Shown here one piece after another: positions 6,747-38,398 of a stretch of DNA of 64,000 bases (position 1 is its first letter; every line of letters starts with the position of its first letter). The notes beneath the pieces are model-generated. The model did not search any database and was not told the origin of the DNA. It worked only from the letters and a program-made list of their open reading frames with translations. The translations under genes were made by a program, and so were the position numbers. Where the stretch lies: assembly GCF_988243305.1 (NCBI RefSeq), contig NZ_OZ547136.1, one strand, 5' to 3'.

Positions 6747-6793
6747 GACACCATCCCTGTCTTCCCCCACATGATGTGGGGGTTTTTTTTATC
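6747..6793 (+). repeat. attL core of prophage (47-bp direct repeat, includes cpxP terminator hairpin)
   Basis: gacaccatccctgtcttcccccacatgatgtgggggttttttttatc identical at 6747..6793 and 38352..38398. Confidence 0.8.
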
Positions 6794-6875
6794 AATTACT
6801 TACATGCAATCAAAAGTAAAAACAGGTACTTATCGAAAGCTGTAAGGGTTTGGAGCGGTTTCAAAATTTCTTGAG

Positions 6876-6894
6876 TGTGGACACTATGTGGACA
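6876..6894 (+). promoter_or_regulatory. Candidate Int arm-type binding sites (tandem TGTGGACA)
   Basis: tgtggacactatgtggaca near attL; similar tgtggacgctatgtggaca near attR at 38285..38303. Confidence 0.4.
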
Positions 6895-6909
6895 TTCAGA
6901 GGGGGAAAT

Positions 6910-7920
6910 TTATAACGTCACTCCGCCTTTTAGTGGATTCAGAGCGACGGCATTTTGCAGATAGTCAGGCGCAAGGTGCGCATAGGCCATCGTCTGCTGA
7001 ATGCTCGCATGTCCCAGAATCTGTTGCAGTGCGATTATATTGCCCCCATTCATCATGAAATGGCTTGCGAATGTATGCCGCAGGATGTGGGTTGCCTGAT
7101 TGGGTGGTATATCAGGTTTCACTCTGCGTAAAATCCCGCAAAATTTCTCATAATCAACTTTGAATAATTTGGCGCTGGCCTCCTCTTTAACTTTTTTCTC
7201 CAGTTCCTCAGAAATCGGCACGGTTCGCTTTTTACCGTTTTTGGTTTTCAGGAAGGTAACCCTGCAATTTGTAATCTGTGCTGGTTTTAGCGTGGCAACT
7301 TCCGTCCATCTTCCTCCGGTGCTCAGACATAAAAGCGCGACAAGTAAGTCATCACCAGCCAAAACATTTAACAGTTTTTCGATTTCTGCTTTTTCCAGGA
7401 ACGTCATTTCAGGGTTGGCCTCCGCCAGTGGCGGCAGTCCGTGAATTGGGTGTTGCCCGGAAAATTCATCCAATTGAATTAATTTTGTGAACATGCCGGA
7501 TAATCGGTACATGTCACGGTTTATCGTTGCGGCACTGATACCATCACGTAGTCGCATGGAACGATAATCCATCAAAGCCCTTTTGCTCATCCTGCTCACT
7601 GGTATATCACCTATGCCGCTGATGGTTTTGAGTAGATGATTAAACTCTTTTGTTCCATGCTCGTGGTTTTGCCCGTGATATTTCCACCAGATGTCCAGCA
7701 ACTCACTCAAAGTCCGGCGGTCTGCTCGCTGGCCTCCCCATTCTTTCTGACTGGCATTGGCGATTGTGTATCGCTCAAATGCTAGTGCTTCAGCTTTTCT
7801 TTCGAATTTCCTGCGGATGCGTTTTCCGTCGCGACCGCGAGGTCTAATGTCCACTTCATAGCGACCATCATCGAGCTTCTTAATTGCCATAAGAAAGCCC
7901 TCCGGCGCTGTATTCACCAT
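6910..7920 (-). CDS. int: P2-type tyrosine integrase
   Basis: 336 aa, adjacent to attL, C-terminal R..H..R..Y catalytic-domain pattern (HILRHTFASH...AYAHL). Confidence 0.9.
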   Translation of the reverse strand: MVNTAPEGFLMAIKKLDDGRYEVDIRPRGRDGKRIRRKFERKAEALAFERYTIANASQKEWGGQRADRRTLSELLDIWWKYHGQNHEHGTKEFNHLLKTISGIGDIPVSRMSKRALMDYRSMRLRDGISAATINRDMYRLSGMFTKLIQLDEFSGQHPIHGLPPLAEANPEMTFLEKAEIEKLLNVLAGDDLLVALLCLSTGGRWTEVATLKPAQITNCRVTFLKTKNGKKRTVPISEELEKKVKEEASAKLFKVDYEKFCGILRRVKPDIPPNQATHILRHTFASHFMMNGGNIIALQQILGHASIQQTMAYAHLAPDYLQNAVALNPLKGGVTL

Positions 7921-7959
7921 CTTGGTAGCAAATGGTAAAAATGTAATCTTTATATAGAG

Positions 7960-8253
7960 TTAGCCAATCCTTTTCGCGGAGTGGTTGGACTCTGTTGACT
8001 CTGGCCCAATGTGCGCGAGAGCCGGTGCGATTTGTCCTGCGTCCGGCGCGGTTTTATCTGTCATAAGCCATAGAGCATATTTTTGGAATGTGGGATGCAT
8101 AGTGATTTTTAGCAAAGCTGTGCCACCGGGTTCAAAGTTTCCTCCTTCATATTTTTTAAGTGTGCTTAGCGGTAACTCTATGATTTCACAGAATTTTGAT
8201 TGGCTTAGCCCTTCAGCCTCACGCAAGGCCTTAATCTTTTCGCTTAATTTCAT
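7960..8253 (-). CDS. P2 C-type immunity repressor
   Basis: 97 aa HTH protein; C-terminal QIAPALAH motif as in P2 C; divergent from cox. Confidence 0.8.
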   Translation of the reverse strand: MKLSEKIKALREAEGLSQSKFCEIIELPLSTLKKYEGGNFEPGGTALLKITMHPTFQKYALWLMTDKTAPDAGQIAPALAHIGPESTESNHSAKRIG

Positions 8254-8264
8254 TTGACATGGTG

Positions 8265-8308
8265 CCTATATAGGGACTAAATTCCCTCAAAACTGGAACC
8301 TATATAGG
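8265..8308 (+). promoter_or_regulatory. Candidate early operator: two CCTATATAGG palindromic 10-mers in C/cox divergent region
   Basis: cctatatagg at 8265..8274 and 8299..8308; TTGACA at 8254..8259. Confidence 0.35.
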
Positions 8309-8374
8309 TTCCATTGATTTGAGAATAAACCAGCATCTAAACGGTTTTGAGTGGTTTAGAAAGGGCTGGATCCT

Positions 8375-8662
8375 ATGAGGGTACCATATATGGACGCTGA
8401 AAATTATGTGATTCAGTATCCGCTTGATGCGGTTCATGTGGATAAATTTGCTGATTTATTAGGGAAGCCAAAGACAGCCGTCAGTGAAATGGTGAAGGCA
8501 AATAAATTACCAATTATTGAATTGCGTGATCCTTGCAAACCGAAGGCTCGTGCCGGTGAAAAATGGGTTTTCATTCCTGAGTTTAATCGCGCTGTACGTG
8601 AGGCGTTTTATAACCGACCGGTTGAACAGCGTGATGCATGGCTTTTGTGGATGGGGTTGTGA
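8375..8662 (+). CDS. cox: Cox-like excisionase/transcriptional switch
   Basis: 95 aa, position and similarity to P2 Cox (…LPIIELRDP…AGEKWVFIP…RDAWLLWMGL). Confidence 0.7.
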   Translation: MRVPYMDAENYVIQYPLDAVHVDKFADLLGKPKTAVSEMVKANKLPIIELRDPCKPKARAGEKWVFIPEFNRAVREAFYNRPVEQRDAWLLWMGL

Positions 8663-12684: not shown

Positions 12685-12942
12685 GTAAAAATACAGCGTG
12701 ATTTTATATGTCTTTGAATGGATTATGCGAAACACCTCTAAGGTAGATGAGGAGCAATAGCGTGTTGAATCAGAAGGCTAAATTGTATTGAATCGTTAGC
12801 ATGTAATTGAAGGCAGCTATTTGATTCGAGTCATAAAAGAGCATCTATTTCGGTTAATAAAACCATTGCGAGTGACTTTATGTCGAAGCATAATTCATCT
12901 CGAGCGAAGTCTTGCTAGTCTTTCATCGGATTGATGACGGGC

Positions 12943-12975
12943 GCAAAAAAACCACCCTGGCAGGTGGTTTTTTTG
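12943..12975. terminator. Bidirectional rho-independent terminator
   Basis: A-run, accacc-ctggca-ggtggt hairpin, T-run. Confidence 0.5.
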
Positions 12976-12986
12976 TTTGAAGCATA

Positions 12987-13100
12987 CTAAAGAAAAATAC
13001 TTACATGGATATTACTGACGTTTACTGACAAACCACTCGGACTACCATATGGATAGCCAAAGAGGGCCAGAACGAGAATGCAGTAATAGCACTTCTTCAT
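12987..13100 (-). CDS. Hypothetical 37-aa hydrophobic peptide (MKKCYYCILVLALFGYPYGSPSGLSVNVSNIHVSIFL)
   Basis: ATG with AGGAGG 5-10 nt upstream; terminator immediately downstream on the same strand. Confidence 0.3.
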   Translation of the reverse strand: MKKCYYCILVLALFGYPYGSPSGLSVNVSNIHVSIFL

Positions 13101-13822
13101 ATCGCCTCCTGTAAGCAGAGGGCAATTTCCGCCGATATATGCGCTTCTAAGGCGGAGTGACTATTGAGCGAAGTCTTGCCCTGAAATAATGCTCTGTTTA
13201 AACGCAAAGTGATCTGGCATATCACCGAACAGAGGACCTGAACAACACAACATATAGTATGTCGTTGTTTCTGGTTGCATTTTATGTTGTGTAATACTGG
13301 TTTTGCATCAAGGATGTTTGAGCTTTTTTTGATATAGCTCAAAGTAAAAAGCAGAGACTACGGATGATAAGGTCTTGAAAGCAATGTAAATTTTTTAAAG
13401 TTGTGAGTGGCTAGAAATGCACAGTTTCAATATGGCGGATTTAAACAAGTAATTAAAAATAGCGACACAAATTCCAATAAAATCATTAAGTTGCGTTTTC
13501 TGTGGAAACTTCGGTGACTCTGAAATTTTCTTTTAGTATCGCTGAGGTTTAACAACTCGCTGCGCAAGTAGTTAGTGTTTTTTTTAACTCAATATTCTGA
13601 TTTATAAGGTTTTTTATAAATCGTGGGCTGGTTGCGCATATTCATCTCGTGTTATCAGCAAAGATAAGCTCTATATGCAGAACTGAATGCATATATGATG
13701 TCGAAAATGTTATGGGAAAACGTGGATTAGTGTTATAGTAATGGCTGAAAAACAGCCTTGACATAAAATAACAACTGTGATATGGCTGTGCATACTTAAC
13801 TTTTTTAACGTAGGAGGCAACC

Positions 13823-14308
13823 ATGAGCTATGCAGCTAAAAAACTGCTTGACCGCTATTGGGATCGCCGACTACCTGTCGATCCGTTTAAGCTTGCTAAA
13901 GCGTGGGGTGCTCGTGTTGAAGCACTTGAGGAATCGGCTTATAACAACGATGGGTTAAGCGGTCTGGCTGTCATCAAAAAGGGTGTCCATAGGATTTATT
14001 TTGATTCTAGTGAACATTCTAATCGTCAACGTTTTACTGTTGCACACGAGTTAGGTCATCATGTGCTGGGGCATACCCAGGACGGAGAGTACCATCGGGA
14101 TAATGTCGGGAATTATTCAACAGGTGCTCGTGATTACCGTGAGGTTGAAGCAAACAAGTTTGCTGCTGAGTTGTTAATGCCTGAGTCTGCTATACGTCAA
14201 TTGGTATCCAGAGAAGGTATTGATAGCACTTTGAGATTAGCAAGCATCTTTAATGTATCAGAAGCCGCTATGCATTGGCGCTTAAAGAGCTTAGGAATGG
14301 CTTATTAA
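13823..14308 (+). CDS. ImmA/IrrE-family HEXXH zinc metallopeptidase-like protein (161 aa)
   Basis: HELGHHVLGH plus downstream E (FAAELLMPE); AGGAGG SD; promoter-like TTGACA at 13761; AT-rich cargo. Confidence 0.75.
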   Translation: MSYAAKKLLDRYWDRRLPVDPFKLAKAWGARVEALEESAYNNDGLSGLAVIKKGVHRIYFDSSEHSNRQRFTVAHELGHHVLGHTQDGEYHRDNVGNYSTGARDYREVEANKFAAELLMPESAIRQLVSREGIDSTLRLASIFNVSEAAMHWRLKSLGMAY

Positions 14309-14374
14309 TTAGCCTTTAACTTTTAACCTGTTTAAAATCACCTTTACGTTTGTACATGTAAGGGTGATTTTTTT

Positions 14375-14974
14375 ATGGCTGATATTGATTTATCTGGACA
14401 GTCCCCAGAGCAAGGAACCACTCCTAAGGGCGATTTAGATCCTGATATCCTTATAAGGCGAGATAGACGGGATGGTATAGAGCGTAGAAGTATGCGATTA
14501 GTGCTCTCTGCCGTTGTGCTTTGTTTTGCTTGTACATTTCTATGGCAGGGGCTTAACTTTGCTTTGGCTGTTGGAAATGGCTTGCTGGAAGCGAAAAGCA
14601 GTATTGCCGCAGCGATAACACAAAAAGTAGATACACAAACTTGTGTTTCAGCAGAAAAATGTTCTGCTTTATCTTCGGATCCGAAGATGGCTGATGAGAG
14701 GATAACACCATCTTCAGACACTAATAAAGTTAGAAAATCTATTTCTGGTTTATCCACCGATTGGTTATCGGCCAGTTCTCTAATAGCTATTGTTGCATTC
14801 ATCCTTGGTGTGGGTTTAACTTTGCTTTTGACTCTTCTTAAATCAGCATTTCAACACCCGACAGATAAAGACTTTAGAACAAAGTCGACATCTAATACTA
14901 TTGAGTTGGCCACGCCAATCAGTGAATTAATAATTGGTGTTCTGAATATAATTAAAGACAAACTATCTAAGTAA
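14375..14974 (+). CDS. Hypothetical membrane protein, two predicted TM helices (199 aa)
   Basis: Hydrophobic segments ~res 40-66 and 130-155; start codon sits in T-run of upstream terminator hairpin. Confidence 0.6.
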   Translation: MADIDLSGQSPEQGTTPKGDLDPDILIRRDRRDGIERRSMRLVLSAVVLCFACTFLWQGLNFALAVGNGLLEAKSSIAAAITQKVDTQTCVSAEKCSALSSDPKMADERITPSSDTNKVRKSISGLSTDWLSASSLIAIVAFILGVGLTLLLTLLKSAFQHPTDKDFRTKSTSNTIELATPISELIIGVLNIIKDKLSK

Positions 14975-15056
14975 AGCATTAGTTGTGATTTTTTATTGGT
15001 TTTAGTGATAATACATCTCCAGTACTTATTGTTACTGGAGAGTATTTTTAGTCGTT

Positions 15057-15998
15057 TTATATTTTTAATGTTAGTGAATGATATTCACGAGAGTTCACGT
15101 TCGATGTGATGTAATCGGGGGCGTTAACACCAAGAATCGCAACGAGTAATCGGCAAATTAAAGCCTGCATTTGTTGTAATATGTCATCTCCATATTGATA
15201 ATTGTTAATAGTGGTAAAGCCAAGTGGTTGACCATGAAACATAGCTTCATGAAAGTTTTCATTGCGGATGTTTGTAATGTTTTTTTTACCTGTAACCCAT
15301 GATGGTCGTGGTATTCCATAAGTTTTGCAGATCCACTTCAAGCGCCTGGAGTGATTTAGAGTCTTTTCTGTACACTTGTTCTTTTCTGCCCATGTTAAAG
15401 CAAAGCAACTATCCAGTGCCATATAAAGATACTGGAATTTTTCGAAGCTAAGGTATTGTGGGTTTTGGGATAAAAATAGTGCATGCACTATTGCTGCTAT
15501 ATTTATTGGTGCGTGTTTGGTTTTTGTCTCGCTAGACATGTATTTGAGTGCTAATTCTATAACCTCTTTTTCAGAGCACTTGACCAGAATAAAGTCAGTT
15601 AATTTGCTGGGTTTTATTGGGGTTGCGTCTAAAAAACCGGCATCAGTAGTTGTTAATCTTATCCCTTTGAAAAAAGACAGACACCACACAGCAAAATTGA
15701 GAGTTTCTAGTGAAGATGTATTTTTTAATTTTAGTGAGTGTGTTTTGGGTAAGCCAAATACTCGTTGGCTAAAAGGCATTGTGGATATGCCTCCATTGAG
15801 GTTATATACTTCTTGGTTTCCTGGGTATATCCAACCGTTAATAACATTTCTGTGATTGTTTATAAGATTTGTTTTTTCCGCTAGACCGGGTAAAGTAAGT
15901 AAAGAAAAATCATCAGTTTCAACGTTAACTTCTACTGGATAGTATCCAAACTCAGCTTCAATATCATTGGATTGCTGTTCGTCAACTTTACCTTGCAT
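15057..15998 (-). CDS. Hypothetical protein, 313 aa, unknown function (candidate phage-exclusion effector)
   Basis: Long ORF in AT-rich DNA (sampled lines roughly 35-40% GC vs >50% flanks), GGAG SD, convergent with membrane-protein gene; R-x4-H at ~245-250. Confidence 0.65.
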   Translation of the reverse strand: MQGKVDEQQSNDIEAEFGYYPVEVNVETDDFSLLTLPGLAEKTNLINNHRNVINGWIYPGNQEVYNLNGGISTMPFSQRVFGLPKTHSLKLKNTSSLETLNFAVWCLSFFKGIRLTTTDAGFLDATPIKPSKLTDFILVKCSEKEVIELALKYMSSETKTKHAPINIAAIVHALFLSQNPQYLSFEKFQYLYMALDSCFALTWAEKNKCTEKTLNHSRRLKWICKTYGIPRPSWVTGKKNITNIRNENFHEAMFHGQPLGFTTINNYQYGDDILQQMQALICRLLVAILGVNAPDYITSNVNSREYHSLTLKI

Positions 15999-16236
15999 AC
16001 ATTGCTCCGGTCAAAAATAGGCTCGATAATTCTCGTAAGCCTATCATGTTCGCAAAGTATCCATACCTGTGGATTTTGTAAATTTAAGTTGATTTGTCAT
16101 TAAATAAGCCGTTGCATGCAACAAGTGAATGTTTTTGCATGCGTCGGGGATGTCCGTTCAGGCTGCGTGCGGTCAGGACTGGTGCGGATCCATAGTATCT
16201 ATGCAACTGCATTAAAACCGCCCCATGAAGCGGGCG

Positions 16237-16255
16237 GGCGAGGCGGGGAAAGCAC
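16237..16255 (+). other. Phage cos site (19-nt cohesive end GGCGAGGCGGGGAAAGCAC)
   Basis: Matches recalled P2 cohesive-end sequence; located between cargo island and portal gene. Confidence 0.6.
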
Positions 16256-16395
16256 TGCGCGCTGGCGGTGGTGCTGATTTTATTTTTTCAGCGTCTCAGC
16301 GCGTCGTGACGGCGTTTGGATTGTGCGCCGGGGCGTTGGTGTGTCTGTGGGGTGTTTTGTGCGGTGGTGAGCGTGTGAGGGCGTGATGACGGGGT

Positions 16396-16420
16396 GTAAA
16401 AAAGCCGCCCGCAGGCGGCG
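16396..16420 (-). terminator. Rho-independent terminator downstream of portal gene
   Basis: gccgcc-cgca-ggcggc hairpin followed by T-run on minus strand. Confidence 0.45.
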
Positions 16421-16424
16421 ATGT

Positions 16425-17459: not shown

Positions 17460-19231
17460 TAGTAAAACTCCAGAATGGTGGATGTCAGCGGGGTGCTGAT
17501 ACCGGCGGTGAGTGGCTCATTTAACAGGGCGTGCATGGTCGCCCAGGCGAGATCGGCGTGGCTGGCTTCCTCGCTGCGGCTGGCCTCATAGGTGGCGCTG
17601 CGTCCGCTGCTGGTCATGGTCTTGCGGATAGCCATAAACGAGCTGGTGATGTCGGTGGCGCTGACGTCATATTCCAGACAGCCACGGCGAATAACGTCTT
17701 TTGCCTTGAGCACCATTGCGGTTTTCATTTCCGGCGTGTAGCGGATATCGCGTGCGGCGGGATAGAACGAGCGAACGAGCTGGAACACGCCGACACCGAG
17801 GCCGGTGGCATCAATTCCGATGTATTCGACGTTGTATTTTTCGGTGAGTTTGCGGATGGATTCAGCCTGGGTGGCAAAGTCCATGCCTTTCCACTGGTGA
17901 CGCTCAAGTATTCTGAATTTGCCACCGGCCACCACCGGCGGTGCCAGCACCACGCATCCGGCACTGTCGCCACGGTGTGACGGGTCGTAACCAATCCAGA
18001 CCGGGCGGGAGCCGAACGGATTCGCGGCAAACGGCGCATAGTCTTCCCATTCTTCCAGCGTGTCGACCATGCAGCGTTGCAGCTCCTCGAACGGGAACAC
18101 CGACGCCTTGTCGTCAACAAATTCACACATGAACAGGTTTTTAAAATCGTCGGCGCTGTTTTCGCGTTTAAGCTGCTCAATGTCGAACAGCGTGCAGCCA
18201 CCTTTCAGGGCGTCCTCAATGGTGACAATCTGCCGCCACTGACCGTCCGCACAGAGAAGCCCACCGGCAAGAGCGTTATGACTGACGTCGATTTCCACGC
18301 GTTCGGCGGCGCTGGCGCGTCCCCGGTTGAACAGTTCACCCGACCAGAACGGGTAGGCGTCGTGCGCCAGCGTGGACGGGGTGGAGAAATAGGTCGAGCG
18401 CAGGTGACTCTGTGAGGCCATACCTGATGCCACCTTACGCAGTACCTGAAAATTCGGTATCCAGAAAATCTCGTCGACGTACAGGTCGCCGTTATGGCTC
18501 TGCGCGGTGTTGGAGTTGGTGCCGAGAAAAATCAGTTTTGCGCCGTTATTGCCCAGGACAATTGGGTCACCGGTCAGGTCAACGTCAACCAGCCGGGCAA
18601 AGGCGATGATGTATTCGCGGAACACATACGCCTGCGTTTTACTGGCCGACAGAAAAATCTGGTTATGACCGGTTTTCAGGGCGCGCAGCAGCGCCTCGCG
18701 GGAAAAATAAAACGTCGCGCCAATCTGGCGGGATTTCAGGATATCGCGGATGCGGTGCTCAAGCCCTGCGCGATACCAGTGCAACTGATATTCGAAAGAC
18801 TGCTCAAAGAAAATCTGCTCCAGCTTTTCGATGGCCTCGTCACTGAAAAAATTCTTTTTCGGTTTGCGACGCCCGCCTTTGTTGCGGTTAGCGACGTTCG
18901 GATTAAAGTCTGCCTCGTTGCCGGTCTGACTGTAACGGTTGACCCGTGCCAGTCGTTCAATCTGGCGTCCGAGCAGGTCAATTTCCTTGAAGTCACCGCC
19001 GGTTTTCTGCGGTTTGATGATGAGCTGGGTCAGCCGCGCTTCCAGACTCATTTCGACACGGCTGATGGGGGCAACGCTGTCCCAGCCGTCGCGCTGTTTC
19101 CAGCTCTGCACCGTCGGGCGTTTCATCTGCAACATGGCGGCAATCTGCGGCACGGAAAATCCCTGCCAGTACAGCAGCGCCGCCTGACGACGCGGGTCGT
19201 GTAAAAGAGTGGTGTCTGTGGTGATGGTCAT
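17459..19231 (-). CDS. Terminase large subunit (P2 gpP)
   Basis: 590 aa from ATG at 19231 (MTITTDTT...); ORF-track frame extends to 19261. Confidence 0.9.
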   Translation of the reverse strand: MTITTDTTLLHDPRRQAALLYWQGFSVPQIAAMLQMKRPTVQSWKQRDGWDSVAPISRVEMSLEARLTQLIIKPQKTGGDFKEIDLLGRQIERLARVNRYSQTGNEADFNPNVANRNKGGRRKPKKNFFSDEAIEKLEQIFFEQSFEYQLHWYRAGLEHRIRDILKSRQIGATFYFSREALLRALKTGHNQIFLSASKTQAYVFREYIIAFARLVDVDLTGDPIVLGNNGAKLIFLGTNSNTAQSHNGDLYVDEIFWIPNFQVLRKVASGMASQSHLRSTYFSTPSTLAHDAYPFWSGELFNRGRASAAERVEIDVSHNALAGGLLCADGQWRQIVTIEDALKGGCTLFDIEQLKRENSADDFKNLFMCEFVDDKASVFPFEELQRCMVDTLEEWEDYAPFAANPFGSRPVWIGYDPSHRGDSAGCVVLAPPVVAGGKFRILERHQWKGMDFATQAESIRKLTEKYNVEYIGIDATGLGVGVFQLVRSFYPAARDIRYTPEMKTAMVLKAKDVIRRGCLEYDVSATDITSSFMAIRKTMTSSGRSATYEASRSEEASHADLAWATMHALLNEPLTAGISTPLTSTILEFY

Positions 19232-25160: not shown

Positions 25161-25605
25161 GTTTAAGCGTTTTGAAGACCGGCTGACCGGACTGATTGAG
25201 TCGCTGTCACCGTCAGGGCGTCGGCGACTGAGCGCCGAACTGGCGAAACGTCTGCGTCAGAGTCAGCAGCGCCGGGTGATGGCACAGAAAGCCCCGGACG
25301 GCACACCCTACGCACCACGCCAGCAGCAGAGCGCCAGAAAAAAGACCGGTCGCGTTAAGCGAAAAATGTTTGCGAAACTTATCACCAGTCGTTTTTTGCA
25401 TATCCGCGCCAGCCCGGAGCAGGCATCAATGGAGTTTTACGGCGGGAAGTCGCCGAAAATCGCCAGTGTGCATCAGTTCGGTCTGTCGGAAGAAAACCGG
25501 AAAGACGGTAAGAAAATTGATTATCCGGCGCGTCCTCTGCTCGGCTTTACCGGTGAGGATGTGCAGATGATTGAAGAGATTATCCTGGCTCACCTCGACC
25601 GTTAG
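25153..25605 (+). CDS. Tail completion protein (P2 gpS)
   Basis: 150 aa. Confidence 0.8.
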   Translation: MNEFKRFEDRLTGLIESLSPSGRRRLSAELAKRLRQSQQRRVMAQKAPDGTPYAPRQQQSARKKTGRVKRKMFAKLITSRFLHIRASPEQASMEFYGGKSPKIASVHQFGLSEENRKDGKKIDYPARPLLGFTGEDVQMIEEIILAHLDR

Positions 25606-25671
25606 TTGTGCCATTCCCGACACCTCATCGTCACATTGCCGCCGGTATGACCCGGCGGCATCCTTCCCGTT

Positions 25672-26307
25672 ATGAACACTCTCGCAAATATTCAGGAACT
25701 CGCGCGCGCACTGCGCAATATGATTCGCACCGGCATTATCGTCGAAACCGACCTTAACGCCGGTCGCTGCCGTGTGCAGACCGGCGGCATGTGCACCGAC
25801 TGGCTTCAGTGGCTGACCCATCGCGCAGGACGTTCGCGCACATGGTGGGCACCTTCCGTGGGGGAACAGGTGCTGATTCTGGCCGTGGGTGGTGAACTCG
25901 ACACGGCGTTCGTTCTGCCGGGGATTTATTCCGGCGATAACCCCTCGCCGTCTGTGTCGGCGGATGCCCTGCATATCCGTTTCCCTGACGGGGCGGTGAT
26001 TGAGTATGAACCCGAAACCAGTGCACTCACGGTAAGCGGAATTAAAACGGCCAGCGTGACGGCTTCTGATTCTGTTACTGCCACGGTACCGGTGGTCACG
26101 GTGAAAGCGTCAACCCGTGTCACCCTGGACACACCGGAAGTGGTCTGCACTAACAAACTGACTACCGGCACGCTGGAAGTGCAGAAGGGCGGGACGATGC
26201 GCGGCAACATTGAACACACCGGCGGTGAACTCTCATCAAACGGTAAGGTACTGCATACCCACAAACACCCCGGCGACAGCGGCGGCACAACCGGGAGTCC
26301 TCTATGA
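25672..26307 (+). CDS. Baseplate spike/assembly protein (P2 gpV)
   Basis: 211 aa. Confidence 0.85.
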   Translation: MNTLANIQELARALRNMIRTGIIVETDLNAGRCRVQTGGMCTDWLQWLTHRAGRSRTWWAPSVGEQVLILAVGGELDTAFVLPGIYSGDNPSPSVSADALHIRFPDGAVIEYEPETSALTVSGIKTASVTASDSVTATVPVVTVKASTRVTLDTPEVVCTNKLTTGTLEVQKGGTMRGNIEHTGGELSSNGKVLHTHKHPGDSGGTTGSPL

Positions 26308-27564: not shown

Positions 27565-28168
27565 TTCGCGCCTGCTGCCGACTGGCTCATCACCGCTTGA
27601 AGTCGCCGCCGCAAAAGCCTGTGCAGAAATTGAAAAAACGCCGGTCAGTATTCGTGAGCTGTGGAACCCGGATACCTGTCCGGCAAATCTGCTGCCGTGG
27701 CTGGCGTGGTCATTTTCGGTTGACCGCTGGGATGATAAGTGGCCGGAAGCGACAAAACGCGCTGTTATCCGCGATGCGTATTTCATTCACTGCCATAAGG
27801 GCACTATAGGCGCAATCCGTCGTGTGGTGGAGCCGCTCGGCTATCTGATTGAGGTGAGGGAGTGGTGGCAACTCAATGAGGAGCCGGGGACGTTCCGCAT
27901 CGTTGTTGGCGTGCTTGAGCAGGGTATTACCGAGGAAATGTATCAGGAGCTGGAGCGCCTCGTTGCTGATGCAAAACCTGCAAGCCGCCATCTGACGGGA
28001 CTGGCTATCAGTTTAAGTACAACCGGCAACATTTTTGCCGGTGCAGGATGCTATCACGGTGACGCCCTGACGGTTTATCCCTACACCCCGGAGGCCATTA
28101 TTGTCGGAGGGGATTATTTCCCGGCCTCGGCCATTCATTTAATTGATAACCTGAGAGTAAACGCATGA
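27557..28168 (+). CDS. Baseplate protein (P2 gpI)
   Basis: 203 aa. Confidence 0.8.
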   Translation: MSDSRLLPTGSSPLEVAAAKACAEIEKTPVSIRELWNPDTCPANLLPWLAWSFSVDRWDDKWPEATKRAVIRDAYFIHCHKGTIGAIRRVVEPLGYLIEVREWWQLNEEPGTFRIVVGVLEQGITEEMYQELERLVADAKPASRHLTGLAISLSTTGNIFAGAGCYHGDALTVYPYTPEAIIVGGDYFPASAIHLIDNLRVNA

Positions 28169-29529
28169 CAGTGAAATACTACGCCATTCTGACTATTCAG
28201 GGCGCAGCACGGCTGGCTAACGCGACGATGCTCGGCAGTAAGCTGAATCTGACGCAAATGGCCGTTGGTGATGCGAATGGTGTCTTGCCGACACCAGACC
28301 CGGCACAGACAAAACTGATTAACCAGAAACGCATTGCACCGCTGAATCTTCTTAGTGTTGACCCGAACAACCAGAGCCAGATTATTGCGGAGCAAATCAT
28401 CCCTGAGAGCGAGGGCGGATTCTGGATCCGTGAGATTGGGCTTTATGATGATGAAGGCGTACTCATTGCGGTGGCGAACTGCCCGGAAACGTACAAACCG
28501 CAGTTGCAGGAAGGCAGCGGTCGTACCCAGACTATCCGCATGATTCTGGTTGTCACGAATACCGAAGCCATCACGCTGAAAATCGACCCGTCGGTGGTAC
28601 TGGCGACCCGTAAATACGTGGATGATGAAGTCCTGGAATTAAAGCTGTATGTGGATGACCAGATGAGAAACCACATTGCCGCACAGGATCCTCATACCCA
28701 GTATGCGCAGAAACATAATCCGACATTTACCGGAGAACCAAAAGCGCCGACGCCTGCCGCAGGAAATAACACCACGCGGATTGCGACCACTGAGTTTGTT
28801 CAGGCCGCTATTACCGCTCTGATTAACGGTGCGCCAGCCACACTGGACACACTGAAAGAAATTGCCGCGGCCATTAACAATGACCCGAAATTCAGCACCA
28901 CCATTAACAATGCGCTGTCAGGTAAGCAGCCACTGGATGAGACGCTGACTCATTTGAGTGGAAAGGATGTAGCTGGTCTTCTCGCATACCTTGGTTTGGG
29001 AGAAGGTTCGGCATTACCCGTTGGCGTGCCTGTTCCGTGGCCTTCCGCCACTCCGCCAACAGGCTGGCTGAAATGCAACGGTGCCGCTTTTTCTGCTGAA
29101 GAATACCCGGAACTGGCAAAGGCTTATCCGACAAATAAATTGCCTGATTTACGTGGTGAGTTTATTCGTGGCTGGGATGACGGGCGTGGTGTGGATGCGG
29201 GACGTGCCTTGCTAAGTCTTCAGGATGACTCTTTTGAAGCGCACAGGCATGAGTCCTTTTTTTACGCGGGTATTTCTCGCAATGAAATACCATTAAAAAA
29301 TCTTCCAAGTTCAGACGAGATGCTGACTTTAAGTTCTACAACTAATGCCTTGTCCCCGGACGGTATTGATGCCACTAATTCGTTAATTGGTAATGATGAT
29401 TACAACTGTCTGATTGAAGGAAATAAAAATAACAAACGAACAGCGACGGGGTTGAGTACCAGTATTGTCGGTGCAGCAGAGACACGCCCACGTAATATTT
29501 CATTTAATTACATTGTGAGGGCTGCATGA
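28165..29529 (+). CDS. Tail fibre protein (gpH-like), constant N-terminus + currently expressed variable C-terminus
   Basis: 454 aa; contains inversion crossover site at 28991..29004. Confidence 0.85.
   Translation: MTVKYYAILTIQGAARLANATMLGSKLNLTQMAVGDANGVLPTPDPAQTKLINQKRIAPLNLLSVDPNNQSQIIAEQIIPESEGGFWIREIGLYDDEGVLIAVANCPETYKPQLQEGSGRTQTIRMILVVTNTEAITLKIDPSVVLATRKYVDDEVLELKLYVDDQMRNHIAAQDPHTQYAQKHNPTFTGEPKAPTPAAGNNTTRIATTEFVQAAITALINGAPATLDTLKEIAAAINNDPKFSTTINNALSGKQPLDETLTHLSGKDVAGLLAYLGLGEGSALPVGVPVPWPSATPPTGWLKCNGAAFSAEEYPELAKAYPTNKLPDLRGEFIRGWDDGRGVDAGRALLSLQDDSFEAHRHESFFYAGISRNEIPLKNLPSSDEMLTLSSTTNALSPDGIDATNSLIGNDDYNCLIEGNKNNKRTATGLSTSIVGAAETRPRNISFNYIVRAA
28991..29004 (+). repeat. Inversion crossover site, left (ttggtttgggagaa)
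   Basis: 14-bp perfect inverted repeat with 30904..30917; Hin/Gin-site-like AAACC...GGTTT core. Confidence 0.7.
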
Positions 29530-30131
29530 TGTATAACGCCATCTTGAATAGTAAACTTATTGCCACAAAGGCAGGAGAGATTACCGTTTATAACTATGAC
29601 AGTGAGACACGGGAGTATATTTCTGCATCAACTGAATATCTTGCTGTGGGTGTCGGTATCCCTGCATATTCCTGTTTAGATGCTCCTGGCACACATAAGG
29701 CTGGTTATGCAATCTGCCGTTCGGCAGATTTAAACTCATGGGAATATGTGCCAGACCATCGCGGTGAAATCATCTATAGCACCGAAACAGGAGAATCGAA
29801 AGAAATCACAGCTCCGGGTGATTATCCTGAAAATACAACCACTATCGCCCCGTTAACGCCATACGATGAATGGGATGGTGAGAAATGGGTAACAGATACT
29901 GTGGCACAGCATAGCGCCGCAGTAGGCGCGGCAGAAGCACAGCGCCAGTCACTGATTGATGCAGCAATGGCTTCCATTAGTCTGATTCAGCTGAAATTAC
30001 AGGCCGGACGGAAGTTGACGCAGGCAGAAACAACCAGCCTTAACGCTGTGCTGGATTACATTGACGCGGTGACGGCAACTGATACCAGCACCGCGCCTGA
30101 TGTCATCTGGCCTGAACTGCCGGAGGCGTAG
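29526..30131 (+). CDS. Tail fibre assembly chaperone (gpG-like)
   Basis: 201 aa following H. Confidence 0.8.
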   Translation: MMYNAILNSKLIATKAGEITVYNYDSETREYISASTEYLAVGVGIPAYSCLDAPGTHKAGYAICRSADLNSWEYVPDHRGEIIYSTETGESKEITAPGDYPENTTTIAPLTPYDEWDGEKWVTDTVAQHSAAVGAAEAQRQSLIDAAMASISLIQLKLQAGRKLTQAETTSLNAVLDYIDAVTATDTSTAPDVIWPELPEA

Positions 30132-30543
30132 GCCATTCAATATCTGGCGCACCGGAAGTATCGACCAGCTCCAGTGCGTCCAGATAATCCAGCCACAAAT
30201 TATATTGCGCCAGTTCCTCACCTTTCAGACGACCAATAGCCGCTTTACCAGGCCATTGTTTACTGTTCATGTATTCGTTGGCCTGGTTAATCAATTGCTG
30301 TTTTTCCAGTTCGGCTGCAGCAATCTGTTCCTCATGTGTTGGTGGTGGAATTTCAGACCATGCAGGAAAACCATTTTCTCCAGCGATGCGGATTTTCCCT
30401 TCCGGCGGTAATCCGGAAAACTCAATATACACCTGCTCGTCAACTTCAACAGCATCATCTGGCCATGATTCAGCTTGAGTGTAATCCTCTTTCATCTCCA
30501 GCGGATAGAAAGAGTTTGTAGTCGCGGAATATATATAATTCAT
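30103..30543 (-). CDS. Alternative tail fibre assembly chaperone (G') in invertible segment
   Basis: 146 aa, C-terminus resembles that of G, convergent and overlapping. Confidence 0.7.
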   Translation of the reverse strand: MNYIYSATTNSFYPLEMKEDYTQAESWPDDAVEVDEQVYIEFSGLPPEGKIRIAGENGFPAWSEIPPPTHEEQIAAAELEKQQLINQANEYMNSKQWPGKAAIGRLKGEELAQYNLWLDYLDALELVDTSGAPDIEWPTPPAVQAR

Positions 30544-30564
30544 TTCTCATTCCATATAGCTAAA

Positions 30565-30917
30565 TTAACAGCCTAACGCTAAAAATGAAGCGCCGAGACC
30601 TGGAGTACTGGCTCTGGATATAAATTTAACCGGGTCGGGACTAAAACCTGCACAGGCAATATAACCAACAGCCCCGCTATCTGGTGTGTAGTCTTGTGAG
30701 ACCAAAACACGCAGACATCTGTTTGGAAATGCAATCGGGAAATGGGTTACTACATCCTGTGCAATGCCTGGTGCGCCGATTGAGCCCCACTGAAGAATAA
30801 AACCTGATGGTAATTTTTGATATCCAGTACCTGAAACAGAAAGCGTGAAGCTACCCATATCAGGTATCTGATTCGCCCCTGTCCCTACATTCCTTTTAGC
30901 CGCTTCTCCCAAACCAA
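30565..30917 (-). CDS. Alternative tail-fibre C-terminal cassette (H' variable part), silent in this orientation
   Basis: Reads [14 protein letters not shown]... in same frame as H across the crossover repeat; upstream in-frame stop at 30967..30969. Confidence 0.7.
30904..30917 (-). repeat. Inversion crossover site, right
   Basis: ttctcccaaaccaacgtttatgaaaa resembles cix/gix/hix sites. Confidence 0.7.
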
Positions 30918-30984
30918 CGTTTATGAAAATGCAGAGATAACGGGCAACTGGCATCATCTCCGGTTTTTATTCAGGGGGATGCTC

Positions 30985-31578
30985 ATGCTTATTGGCTATG
31001 TACGCGTGTCAACAAATGACCAGAACACGGAATTGCAGCGTAACGCGCTGGAGTGCGCAGGATGCGAGCGGATTTTTGAGGATAAAATCAGCGGCACGAA
31101 GTCCGACCGACCGGGACTGAAAAAACTGCTCAGAACATTATCATCAGGTGACACTCTGGTAGTCTGGAAGCTGGACCGGCTGGGGCGTAGTATGCGGCAT
31201 CTGGTCATTCTGGTTGAGGAGCTGCGCGAACGCGGCGTTAATTTTCGCAGCCTGACAGATGCTATTGATACCAGCACGCCGATGGGGCGTTTTTTCTTTC
31301 ATGTGATGGGTGCCCTGGCTGAAATGGAACGAGAACTCATTGTCGAGCGGACTCGCGCCGGACTGGAAGCGGCCAGAGCTAAAGGTCGTATTGGTGGCAG
31401 ACGTCCGAAGCTCACCGCGAGTGAGTGGGAACAGGCAGGACGGTTGCTGGTTGCGGGTGAATCACGTCAACGCGTGGCGCTGATTTTTGATATTGGCCTG
31501 TCCACGCTCTATAAAAAATTCCCCTCATCAGCGGCAAAGAATAAATTGTGTCATCCCTTAGCCAACCGGGACAAATAG
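30985..31578 (+). CDS. Serine DNA invertase (Hin/Gin/Cin/Pin family)
   Basis: MLIGYVRVSTNDQ catalytic Ser motif, C-terminal HTH; adjacent to invertible segment. Confidence 0.9.
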   Translation: MLIGYVRVSTNDQNTELQRNALECAGCERIFEDKISGTKSDRPGLKKLLRTLSSGDTLVVWKLDRLGRSMRHLVILVEELRERGVNFRSLTDAIDTSTPMGRFFFHVMGALAEMERELIVERTRAGLEAARAKGRIGGRRPKLTASEWEQAGRLLVAGESRQRVALIFDIGLSTLYKKFPSSAAKNKLCHPLANRDK

Positions 31579-31637
31579 CCTGACATCTCCGGCACAACTG
31601 AAAATATCACTCACCCATTAACCACGGAGTTAAACGG

Positions 31638-32840: not shown

Positions 32841-33359
32841 ATGGCAATGCCGCGCAAACTCAAGTTAATGAACGTCTTTCTGAACGGCTACAGCTATCAG
32901 GGCGTTGCAAAGTCCGTCACGCTGCCAAAACTGACCCGTAAGCTCGAAAACTATCGCGGTGCGGGGATGAACGGCAGCGCACCGGTAGACCTCGGCCTTG
33001 ATGACGATGCGCTGTCAATGGAGTGGTCGCTCGGGGGCTTCCCGGATTCGGTTATCTGGGAGCTTTACGCCGCAACCGGCGTGGATGCCGTGCCGATTCG
33101 TTTTGCAGGCTCTTACCAGCGCGACGATACCGGCGAAACTGTGGCCGTCGAAGTGGTCATGCGTGGACGTCAAAAAGAAATTGACACCGGCGAGGGTAAA
33201 CAGGGAGAAGACACCGAGTCGAAAATCTCCGTGGTCTGCACCTATTTCCGGCTGACGATGGACGGTAAGGAGCTGGTCGAAATCGACACCATCAACATGA
33301 TTGAGAAGGTGAACGGCGTCGACCGGCTGGAGCAACACCGCCGCAATATCGGCCTGTGA
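32841..33359 (+). CDS. Tail tube protein (P2 gpFII)
   Basis: 172 aa. Confidence 0.9.
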   Translation: MAMPRKLKLMNVFLNGYSYQGVAKSVTLPKLTRKLENYRGAGMNGSAPVDLGLDDDALSMEWSLGGFPDSVIWELYAATGVDAVPIRFAGSYQRDDTGETVAVEVVMRGRQKEIDTGEGKQGEDTESKISVVCTYFRLTMDGKELVEIDTINMIEKVNGVDRLEQHRRNIGL

Positions 33360-33415: not shown

Positions 33416-33691
33416 ATGAACAAAGAAAATGTGATTACCCTGGACAATCCGGTCAAGCGTGGTGAGCAGGTTATCGAACAGGTCACGCTGATGAAACCTA
33501 ATGCCGGGACGCTGCGCGGTGTCAGTCTGGCTGCGGTCGCAAACTCCGAAGTCGATGCACTGATTAAAGTGCTGCCGCGCATGACGGCACCGATGCTGAC
33601 CGAGCAGGAAGTCGCCGCGCTGGAACTGCCTGACCTTGTGGCGCTGGCCGGTAAGGTGGTCGGTTTTTTGTCGCCGAACTCGGTGCAGTGA
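33416..33691 (+). CDS. Tail assembly chaperone gpE
   Basis: 91 aa upstream of tape measure. Confidence 0.8.
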   Translation: MNKENVITLDNPVKRGEQVIEQVTLMKPNAGTLRGVSLAAVANSEVDALIKVLPRMTAPMLTEQEVAALELPDLVALAGKVVGFLSPNSVQ

Positions 33692-33843
33692 CGTTTCCGA
33701 AAAATCTGTCGGTCGATGACCTGATGGCGGATGTGGCAGTGATATTTCACTGGCCGCCATCAGAACTGTATCCCATGAGTCTGACCGAACTCATCACATG
33801 GCGCGAAAAGGCGCTCCGGCGAAGCGGAAACACGAATGAGTAA
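33416..33843 (+). CDS. gpE+E' frameshift fusion product
   Basis: TTTTTTG slippery run at ~33664..33670; -1 frame open to TAA at 33841..33843. Confidence 0.6.
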
Positions 33844-36283
33844 CAATGTAAAATTACAGGTATTGCTCAGGGCTGTTGACCAGGCATCCCGCCCGTTTAA
33901 ATCCATCCGTACAGCGAGCAAGTCGCTGTCGGGGGATATCCGGGAAACACAAAAATCACTGCGCGAGCTGAACGGTCACGCATCCCGTATTGAGGGATTT
34001 CGCAAGACCAGCGCACAGCTTGCCGTGACTGGTCATGCACTTGAAAAGGCACGGCAGGAAGCCGAAGCCCTTGCCACACAGTTTAAAAACACTGAACGTC
34101 CGACCCGTGCTCAGGCGAAAGTGCTGGAATCCGCAAAGCGTGCGGCGGAGGACTTACAGGCGAAATATAACCGCCTGACAGATTCCATTAAACGCCAGCA
34201 GCGGGAACTGGCCGCTGTGGGAATTAATACCCGCAATCTTGCACATGATGAGCAGGGACTGAAAAACCGTATCAGTGAAACCACCGCACAGCTTAACCGT
34301 CAGCGTGACGCGCTGGCGCGTGTCAGTGCACAACAGGCAAAACTTAACGCAGTAAAACAGCGTTATCAGGCCGGAAAGGAACTGGCCGGAAATATGGCCT
34401 CAGTGGGCGCTGCCGGTGTGGGGATTGCTGCTGCGGGAACGATGGCCGGAGTTAAGCTGCTGATGCCCGGTTATGAGTTTGCGCAGAAAAACTCAGAATT
34501 GCAGGCTGTGCTCGGTGTGGCAAAAGACTCCGCCGAAATGGCTGCACTACGCAAGCAGGCGCGCCAGCTCGGCGACAATACCGCAGCCTCGGCAGATGAT
34601 GCAGCCGGTGCGCAGATTATTATTGCGAAAGCCGGTGGGGATGTTGATGCCATTCAGGCGGCAACGCCGGTCACGCTGAATATGGCGCTGGCGAACCGTC
34701 GCACGATGGAAGAAAACGCCGCCCTGCTGATGGGGATGAAATCCGCCTTTCAGCTTTCAAACGATAAGGTCGCTCATATCGGGGATGTTCTCTCCATGAC
34801 GATGAACAAAACCGCCGCCGATTTTGACGGCATGAGCGATGCGCTGACCTATGCCGCACCTGTGGCAAAAAATGCCGGTGTCAGCATTGAAGAAACCGCC
34901 GCAATGGTCGGGGCGCTGCATGATGCAAAAATTACAGGCTCAATGGCGGGGACGGGAAGCCGTGCCGTGTTAAGTCGCCTGCAGGCACCAACGGGAAAAG
35001 CATGGGATGCACTCAAAGAGCTTGGTGTGAAAACCTCAGACAGTAAGGGAAACACCCGACCAGTATTTACCATTCTGAAAGAAATGCAGGCCAGTTTTGA
35101 GAAAAACCGGCTCGGTACTGCCCAGCAGGCTGAATACATGAAAACCATTTTCGGGGAGGAGGCCAGTTCAGCCGCCGCCGTGCTGATGACTGCCGCCTCA
35201 ACCGGAAAGCTGGACAAACTGACCGCTGCGTTTAAAGCCTCAGACGGAAAGACCGCAGAACTGGTAAATATCATGCAGGACAACCTCGGAGGTGACTTTA
35301 AGGAGTTTCAGTCCGCTTATGAGGCGGTGGGGACTGACCTGTTTGACCAGCAGGAAGGCGCACTGCGTAATCTCACGCAGACGGCCACAAAGTATGTGTT
35401 AAAACTCGACGGCTGGATCCAGAAAAACAAATCACTGGCGTCAACCATCGGCATCATTGTCGGTGGCGCGCTGGCGCTTATTGGCATCATCGGTGCCATT
35501 GGTCTTGTAGCCTGGCCGGTTATCACCGGCATCAATGCCATTATCGCGGCAGCAGGCGCAATGGGGGCAATCTTCACGACGGTTAGCAGTGCTGTTATGA
35601 CCGCCATCGGGGCGATTAGCTGGCCGGTTGTGGCCGTGGTGGCCGCCATTGTCGCCGGGGCGTTGCTTATCCGTAAATACTGGGAGCCTGTCAGCGCATT
35701 CTTTGGCGGTGTGGTTGAAGGGCTGAAAGCGGCATTTGCGCCGGTGGGGGAGCTGTTCACGCCACTGAAACCGGTGTTTGACTGGCTGGGCGAAAAGTTA
35801 CAGGCCGCGTGGCAGTGGTTTAAAAACCTGATTGCCCCCGTCAAAGCCACCCAGGACACCCTGAACCGTTGTCGTGACACGGGTGTCATGTTCGGGCAGG
35901 CACTGGCTGACGCGTTGATGCTGCCGCTTAATGCGTTCAACAAACTGCGCAGCGGTATTGACTGGGTACTGGAAAAACTCGGTGTTATCAACAAAGAGTC
36001 AGACACACTTGACCAGACCGCCGCCAGAACTCAAGCCGCCACGTATGGCAGCGGTGGTTATATTCCGGCGACCAGCTCTTATGCAGGCTATCAGGCTTAT
36101 CAGCCGGTCACGGCACCGGCTGGCCGCTCTTATGTGGACCAGAGTAAAAACGAATATCACATCAGCCTGACGGGTGGCACTGCGCCGGGGACACAGCTTG
36201 ACCGCCAGTTACAGGATGCGCTCGAAAAATACGAGCGGGATAAACGTGCGCGCGCCCGTGCCAGCATGATGCATGACGGTTAA
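33836..36283 (+). CDS. Tail tape measure protein (P2 gpT)
   Basis: 815 aa, coiled-coil N-terminus, Gly/Ala-rich hydrophobic segments. Confidence 0.9.
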   Translation: MSNNVKLQVLLRAVDQASRPFKSIRTASKSLSGDIRETQKSLRELNGHASRIEGFRKTSAQLAVTGHALEKARQEAEALATQFKNTERPTRAQAKVLESAKRAAEDLQAKYNRLTDSIKRQQRELAAVGINTRNLAHDEQGLKNRISETTAQLNRQRDALARVSAQQAKLNAVKQRYQAGKELAGNMASVGAAGVGIAAAGTMAGVKLLMPGYEFAQKNSELQAVLGVAKDSAEMAALRKQARQLGDNTAASADDAAGAQIIIAKAGGDVDAIQAATPVTLNMALANRRTMEENAALLMGMKSAFQLSNDKVAHIGDVLSMTMNKTAADFDGMSDALTYAAPVAKNAGVSIEETAAMVGALHDAKITGSMAGTGSRAVLSRLQAPTGKAWDALKELGVKTSDSKGNTRPVFTILKEMQASFEKNRLGTAQQAEYMKTIFGEEASSAAAVLMTAASTGKLDKLTAAFKASDGKTAELVNIMQDNLGGDFKEFQSAYEAVGTDLFDQQEGALRNLTQTATKYVLKLDGWIQKNKSLASTIGIIVGGALALIGIIGAIGLVAWPVITGINAIIAAAGAMGAIFTTVSSAVMTAIGAISWPVVAVVAAIVAGALLIRKYWEPVSAFFGGVVEGLKAAFAPVGELFTPLKPVFDWLGEKLQAAWQWFKNLIAPVKATQDTLNRCRDTGVMFGQALADALMLPLNAFNKLRSGIDWVLEKLGVINKESDTLDQTAARTQAATYGSGGYIPATSSYAGYQAYQPVTAPAGRSYVDQSKNEYHISLTGGTAPGTQLDRQLQDALEKYERDKRARARASMMHDG

Positions 36284-38351: not shown

Positions 38352-38398
38352 GACACCATCCCTGTCTTCCCCCACATGATGTGGGGGTTTTTTTTATC
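38352..38398 (+). repeat. attR core of prophage
   Basis: Identical 47 bp to attL. Confidence 0.8.

Follow-up and report, generated by a model that had tools for sequence, protein, structure and literature searches.

Organization of the tail genes around the E/E' overlap

The window analyzed here, a 64,000-nucleotide stretch of contig NZ_OZ547136.1 (NCBI RefSeq assembly GCF_988243305.1), contains a set of P2-type tail genes in which gene E, located between the tail tube gene FII and the tape measure gene T, overlaps an open reading frame in the −1 frame, designated E'. The following features were identified at this locus.

31546–31637, + strand: pF late promoter region of the FI-FII-E-E'-T-U-D operon, by alignment to P2 positions 17555–17651
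32841–33359, + strand: gene FII, tail tube protein, directly upstream of E (Pfam Phage_tube, E=2.3e-60; 100% identity to P2 FII)
33416–33691, + strand: gene E, zero-frame tail assembly chaperone of 91 aa (ORF, Pfam and identity to P2 gpE)
33664–33670, + strand: slippery heptamer T_TTT_TTG, with TTT at 33665–33667 in the P site and TTG at 33668–33670 in the A site
33670–33843, + strand: E' segment, 57 codons plus TAA, with G33670 read twice (translation and Pfam)
33416–33843, + strand: composite E+E', predicted 142-aa fusion, join 33416..33670,33670..33843, with the junction of the curated P2 protein
33836–36283, + strand: gene T, tape measure protein of 815 aa (ORF; Pfam PhageMin_Tail, E=1.8e-45; 98.3% identity to P2 gpT over its full length)

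Both reading frames encode recognizable protein families. Residues 7–85 in the E frame match PF10109 (Phage_TAC_7; E=2.6e-12, 47 bits against a cutoff of 25), a family described in Pfam as 'tail assembly chaperone proteins E, or 41 or 14'. Residues 104–139 of the fusion match PF06528 (Phage_P2_GpE; E=1.2e-21, 76.3 bits against a cutoff of 23), and this match is present only via the −1 frame. The flanking Pfam domains occur in the order of P2, i.e., sheath (FI), tube (FII), tape measure (T), gpU and gpD. None of the NCBIfam models matches E or E', and a search of solved structures yielded no homologue, with no PDB sequence match at E≤1. The exact 91-aa gpE sequence is recorded on at least 1000 public contigs, and about 1000 have the 51-aa E' ORF annotated as a protein in its own right ('GpE family phage tail protein'). 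Compared with four relatives, substitutions in E' favor the third position of the −1 frame (e.g., 4/2/11 and 19/8/27), indicating that the −1 frame is under coding constraint.

A TTTTTTG run near the end of gpE had been predicted originally, and the run is located at 33664–33670, in phase with gene E. By direct reading, the zero-frame codons are GGT (33662), TTT (33665) and TTG (33668), so that the run reads T_TTT_TTG; it is the sole in-phase X_XXY_YYZ heptamer across the gene. Position 33662, from which the original prediction counted the frameshift feature, is the start of codon GGT, the final T of which opens the heptamer. Gene E ends with TGA at 33689–33691, 19 nt 3' of the heptamer. In the −1 frame, a TAA at 33652–33654 precedes an open stretch that begins at 33655 and is terminated by TAA at 33841–33843. 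The stretch in which both frames are open therefore covers 33655–33691 (37 nt), with the heptamer inside it. The tape measure gene starts with ATG at 33836, so the −1 frame does extend just past this start, as had also been predicted, and E' and T overlap by 8 nt (ATGAGTAA).

TTTTTTG occurs 24 times in the window, counting both strands, compared with 19.3 ± 4.2 in dinucleotide-preserving shuffles, showing no enrichment, and the bare count was rejected as evidence by itself. The case for a frameshift site rests on the phase and position of the heptamer, the domain in the −1 frame and conservation.

Identity with the E/E+E' site of phage P2

The 601 nt around the site are 95–99% identical to 74 Peduovirus records, with 99% identity to P2 DNA. 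In the alignment with P2 (NC_001895) and L-413C, the sequences are identical for at least 36 nt upstream and at least 37 nt downstream of the heptamer. At the homologous position, a misc_feature of the P2 reference record reads 'site of -1 translational frameshift', and the joined E+E' CDS of this record is annotated 'shares amino terminus with gpE; -1 frameshift; essential tail protein'. The predicted fusion junction in the window (...KVVGFL|VAELGAVTFPK...) is the same as that in the curated P2 E+E' protein (GFL|VAELGA; NP_046780.1 / UniProt O64312, 'Tail assembly protein E''). Over the whole 142-aa product, the window differs from NP_046780.1 by a single substitution, N29S; gpE shares 98.9% amino acid identity with P2 gpE, and E' is 100% identical to P2 E'.

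The genes, their order, the T_TTT_TTG heptamer, the 37-nt overlap, the 91-aa and 142-aa products and the 8-nt overlap with T are thus common to P2 and the window, the differences at this locus being N29S and a few silent changes. Elsewhere, the prophage in the window differs from P2 in the immunity/integrase region, the tail fiber cassette and the cargo genes. As described in PMC3091744 and PMC3931495, a −1 shift at TTTTTTG in P2 yields the 91-aa E and the 142-aa E+E', and the E' frame reaches 37 nt back into E; both cite Christie et al. (2002, J Bacteriol 184:6522) for the operon FI-FII-E-E'-T-U-D and for the production of E+E', reportedly at a low and fixed ratio, and its essentiality for tail assembly. 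In PMC3931495, E' of P2 is described as having no ribosome-binding site. By its sequence, the site in the window is the programmed −1 frameshift site of P2 E/E+E', already known and characterized in P2 in 2002.

Conservation of the frameshift site in Peduoviridae

A tblastn search with the fusion was performed against 50,697 phage records. A total of 418 records match the fusion, with a query coverage of 80% or more in 401 of them, and almost all of the matches listed are in two pieces corresponding to two frames. A comparison set of 20 loci was assembled, comprising the window and 19 retrieved loci with 33–100% protein identity. The hosts in this set include Escherichia, Klebsiella, Yersinia, Salmonella, Burkholderia, Ralstonia, Pseudomonas, Stenotrophomonas, Halomonas, Aeromonas, Vibrio, Acidovorax, Mannheimia and Arsenophonus.

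Every one of the 20 loci has E' in the −1 frame with respect to E and an in-phase slippery heptamer within the E/E' overlap. This heptamer is T_TTT_TTG in 16 of the 20, including phages of GC-rich hosts; the other four loci are those of Smp131 (T_TTT_TTT), Vibrio MAR (T_TTT_TTC), Mannheimia PHL101 (G_GGA_AAG) and P88_4B11 (A_AAT_TTT). The nucleotides flanking the heptamer diverge freely, and the codon supplying the first T varies (GGT, ACT, CTT, GAT, AGT) and always ends in T. The joint probability of NNT-TTT-TTG, calculated from the codon usage of each locus, is about 0.0003–0.02 per locus, and the combination is kept even in phages with a G+C content of 64–67%. Its retention against codon usage indicates selection on the nucleotides and not on the peptide alone.

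No conserved E' start codon was found across the 20 loci, and four of them have none before the conserved core. Only one candidate E' start in the set, an ATG in Smp131, is preceded by a Shine-Dalgarno (SD)-like sequence; in the window, none of the in-frame E' start codons has one.

Homologous E/E' proteins, with 33–77% amino acid identity, are encoded by gene H of phage 186 (orf51/orf52) and by Burkholderia phages KS5, KS14 and KL3, Smp131 and phiCTX-like phages. As in the window, E and E' of 186 and other Peduoviridae are located between the tube and tape measure genes, with E' always in the −1 frame and T_TTT_TTG the usual heptamer (PMC3091744, PMC3931495). These phages differ from the window in that some carry T7, T6C, G_GGA_AAG or A_AAT_TTT, and in how long the overlap and the zero-frame tail are (5 to 22 codons).

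Sequence elements flanking the heptamer

Escherichia coli dnaX and IS911-type frameshift sites rely on an SD-like element about 10–14 nt 5' of the heptamer and on a hairpin or pseudoknot about 5–9 nt 3' of it. The site in the window resembles those of dnaX (tau/gamma) and IS911-type elements in having an X_XXY_YYZ heptamer suited to tandem slippage on bacterial ribosomes, but differs in that it has no conserved hairpin at stimulator distance and in that its SD-like sequence, AAGGTGGT, lies just 3 nt upstream. Folding of positions +1 to +45 after the heptamer gave z = +0.4 in the window, and no consistent hairpin was found in this region among the 20 loci. In line with this, PMC3091744, citing Xu et al. 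(2004), describes the P2 site as having no downstream structure.

A 127-nt fold is moderately significant (z=−2.2), which is due to a hairpin at 33721–33763. This hairpin, located inside E', consists of a perfect 10-bp stem (CTGATGGCGG / CCGCCATCAG) and an inner helix; in it, codons of the conserved LMAD and PPSE motifs pair with each other. It begins 51 nt 3' of the heptamer, lies about 70 nt ahead of the T start, and is kept in P2, L-413C, 186 and Kp4886-2 and lost in YenM06.16-2, Kp4871-2, RE2010 and the Arsenophonus locus. It was rejected as a frameshift stimulator, being too distant and restricted to close P2 relatives. A weak terminator-like hairpin with a T-run at 33643–33670, obtained from a consensus scan, was also rejected: four of its eight pairs are G-U, it is apparently weaker in 186 by sequence inspection, and the total number of such sites is close to the shuffle expectation.

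The SD-like AAGGTGGT occupies 33653–33660 and includes the −1-frame TAA. Similar GAGGTG/AAGGTG motifs occur in many relatives, and for 12 of the 20 loci the 18 nt preceding the heptamer fall within the top 10% for anti-SD pairing. After synonymous-codon resampling, pairing is above expectation in 5 of 18 loci, with a median rank of 0.32. The SD-like element is therefore probably, for the most part, a by-product of the conserved (K/E)-V-x-G-F-L peptide. It is rather unlikely that AAGGTGGT pairs with the 3' end of 16S rRNA and tunes slippage (probably dampening it, given the spacing), or that the T6 run supports low-level transcriptional slippage giving a second isoform with a GFFV junction.

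Proposed expression of gpE and gpE+E'

The geometry and phase of the site, the family membership of both frames, the identity to P2 and the deep conservation are observed features, and their best explanation is, with little doubt, a programmed −1 ribosomal frameshift in a P2-type tail assembly chaperone gene. Most ribosomes would read through T_TTT_TTG and stop at TGA 33689, producing the 91-aa gpE. A minority would slip back by one base, with tRNA-Phe in the P site (UUU) and tRNA-Leu in the A site (UUG) re-pairing with UUU UUU. The slipped ribosomes would continue at GUC 33670 and end at TAA 33843, producing a 142-aa gpE+E' in which the first 85 residues, common with gpE, are followed by a 57-residue C-terminal domain. 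A ribosomal −1 shift predicts the junction tryptic peptide VVGFLVAELGAVTFPK.

The lambda G/GT system has the slippery sequence G_GGA_AAG and belongs to a phage with a non-contractile tail. By analogy with G/GT, the N-terminal part shared by gpE and gpE+E' may coat the tape measure protein gpT, encoded immediately downstream, and the E' domain of the rare fusion may recruit the tube protein FII and thereby start its polymerization, the slip frequency setting the E:E+E' ratio for tail assembly. This chaperone mechanism is carried over from lambda to proteins that share no detectable sequence similarity with G/GT: the window proteins match PF10109 and PF06528 and none of the lambda families. Work on lambda G/GT (Levin et al. 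1993; Xu, Hendrix and Duda 2004, 2013, 2014) is summarized in PMC5009743. According to PMC5009743 and PMC3091744, the lambda locus likewise has a pair of overlapping ORFs flanked by the genes for the major tail (tube) and tape measure proteins. The summary in PMC5009743 also describes a −1 shift that occurs at a low level close to where the first ORF ends, a common N-terminus and a fixed ratio of short to long product, with both products absent from the virion.

Three other explanations were weighed against a programmed frameshift. In one of them, E' is a free 51-aa protein whose own translation begins at GTG 33688, with no frameshift involved. This codon is indeed present in the −1 frame, but it has no SD-like sequence upstream and is confined to the closest P2 relatives, being replaced by ATA or TTA in 186 and Kp4886-2. 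The four loci lacking any E' start codon ahead of the conserved core also argue against an independent start, as do the residues between the heptamer and GTG 33688 (V-A-E-x-G), which are conserved in the −1 frame. In P2-type loci, moreover, the −1 frame opens 9 nt before the heptamer, and the heptamer is kept against codon bias. Free translation of E' agrees with the annotation of the 51-aa ORF on about 1000 contigs and of a separate E' CDS in many phage records, but we regard it as highly improbable, and P2 E' has no ribosome-binding site according to literature cited in PMC3931495.

Efficient transcriptional slippage in bacteria is associated with A/T runs of about 8–9 or more and is independent of phase. 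If RNA polymerase stuttered on the T6 run and added one U, the same downstream frame would be reached with the junction ...GFFVAELGA..., and the predicted junction tryptic peptide would be VVGFFVAELGAVTFPK. The T6 run is, however, shorter than those tied to efficient slippage in bacteria. What is conserved is the full X_XXY_YYZ heptamer in the correct phase, which polymerase slippage does not need; the G_GGA_AAG and A_AAT_TTT of relatives fit tandem tRNA slippage and not polymerase stuttering, and the curated P2 product carries the ribosomal junction GFLV. These points make transcriptional slippage a very poor candidate, even though the site consists of a homopolymer, with T7 in Smp131 and T7C in the relatives of Smp131 (PMC3931495), and database proteins with a GFFV junction (RJK13013.1, QTN08932.1) show that the run length is labile, either in the genome or in sequencing. 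In the last explanation, both the heptamer and the openness of the −1 frame are due to chance or are relicts, without function in a defective prophage remnant. This explanation agrees with the count of TTTTTTG in the window, which at 24 copies is about the chance level, but is opposed by the −1-frame Pfam match (E=1.2e-21), the coding-type substitution bias, the full length and 82–100% identity of all essential P2 genes, the intact att repeats and the retained pF. The domain match, the coding signature and the intactness of the element effectively refute a chance or relict site.

RJK13013.1 and QTN08932.1 are 142-aa E. coli proteins whose source assemblies carry T7 at the run, with E and E' fused in one frame. 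The extra T is either a sequencing error in the homopolymer or a true +1T mutation, which would leave the long form as the sole product.

The main value of the site lies in annotation. The 142-aa E+E' belongs in the record as a joined CDS, in place of which automatic pipelines usually call a free-standing 51-aa 'GpE family' ORF. The site raises no new biological question, as it is identical in sequence to that of P2.

The P2-like prophage carrying the site

The element carrying the site is a complete P2-like prophage of E. coli, probably functional and not a remnant, a view supported by the frameshift site together with a gene-by-gene map of P2 proteins on the window. In this map, Q, P, O, N, M, L, X, Y, K, lysABC, ogr and B are present essentially over their whole length with 82–100% amino acid identity, and P2 A, within the same identity range, is aligned over 754 of 761 residues. 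The P2 tail genes X, R, S, V, W, J, I, FI, FII, E, T, U and D are all full length, with 82–100% identity. The match to P2 H is limited to the N-terminal 255 residues (42% identity), and P2 G, fun(Z), orf30, orf91, tin and old were absent from the window. Among the tail genes, only the fiber genes H and G have been replaced, by a different, probably invertible fiber cassette.

Upstream of FI, the homology to P2 resumes at about 31546. The P2 segment 17555–17651, which includes the activator site and the transcription start, is nearly identical from TTGTG...TTAGCCAACCGGGACA on, and pF and most of the activator site are kept. At either end of the prophage, at 6747–6793 and 38352–38398, lies a direct repeat of 47 bp or more, GACACCATCCCTGTCTTCCCCCACATGATGTGGGGGTTTTTTTTATC, which represents a putative attL/attR core. 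When the right flank was searched, E. coli chromosome was found beyond the right-hand repeat. No tRNA gene is present anywhere in the window.

The original prediction had assigned the run to the conserved tail assembly chaperone frameshift, and this assignment is upheld by the P2-identical sequence around the heptamer, the site annotated in the P2 record and the −1 relation in 20 of 20 loci. It had further taken the site to argue for an intact tail module. The module is indeed intact, with full-length tail genes of 82–100% identity, pF and att repeats, but concluding this from the site alone was an over-reach; it is the gene-by-gene P2 map that establishes the intactness.

In the region 6868–8641, int, the C repressor and cox share just 43–51% amino acid identity with their P2 counterparts, compared with 95–100% for the rest of the early region. 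This low identity indicates that the prophage is heteroimmune to P2. The data also point to an integration site different from that of P2. The att repeat GACACCATCCCTGTCTTCCCCCACATGATGTGGGGGTTTTTTTTATC includes a terminator-like hairpin. At 25602–25672, the non-essential P2 orf30, located between S and V in P2, is absent, leaving an S-V gap of about 70 nt.

Cargo genes and tail fiber cassette

Two regions in which the prophage departs from P2, the uncharacterized cargo and the probable fiber switch, are of more interest than the frameshift site. The cargo lies between the replication gene A and the portal gene Q, at 12685–16424, in place of P2 orf91/tin/old. It includes an M78 peptidase of the ImmA/IrrE type at 13823–14308 (Pfam E=3.8e-21; the best PADLOC match is capP, 1e-30). 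The cargo ORFs at 14375–14974 (+ strand, 199 aa) and 15057–15998 (− strand, 313 aa) have no match in Pfam, NCBIfam or PADLOC. The cargo could be an uncharacterized defense or lysogenic-conversion module at the variable old/tin locus of P2.

The region 28165–31578, which replaces P2 H/G/fun(Z), is a probable invertible tail fiber (host-range) switch and contains the following features.

28165–29529: fiber gene, its 3' part bracketed by the inverted repeats
29526–30131, + strand, and 30103–30543, − strand: Caudo_TAP fiber-assembly genes in opposite orientations, between the repeats
30565–30957, − strand: alternative fiber C-terminus, between the repeats (Pfam Gp53-like_C)
30979–31578: Hin/Gin-type serine invertase, just outside the repeats (Resolvase + HTH_7)

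The inverted repeats are 27 nt long, are located at 28979–29005 and 30903–30929, and apparently resemble crossover sites of the cix/gix type. The stop codon of the serine invertase gene lies 60 nt from FI.
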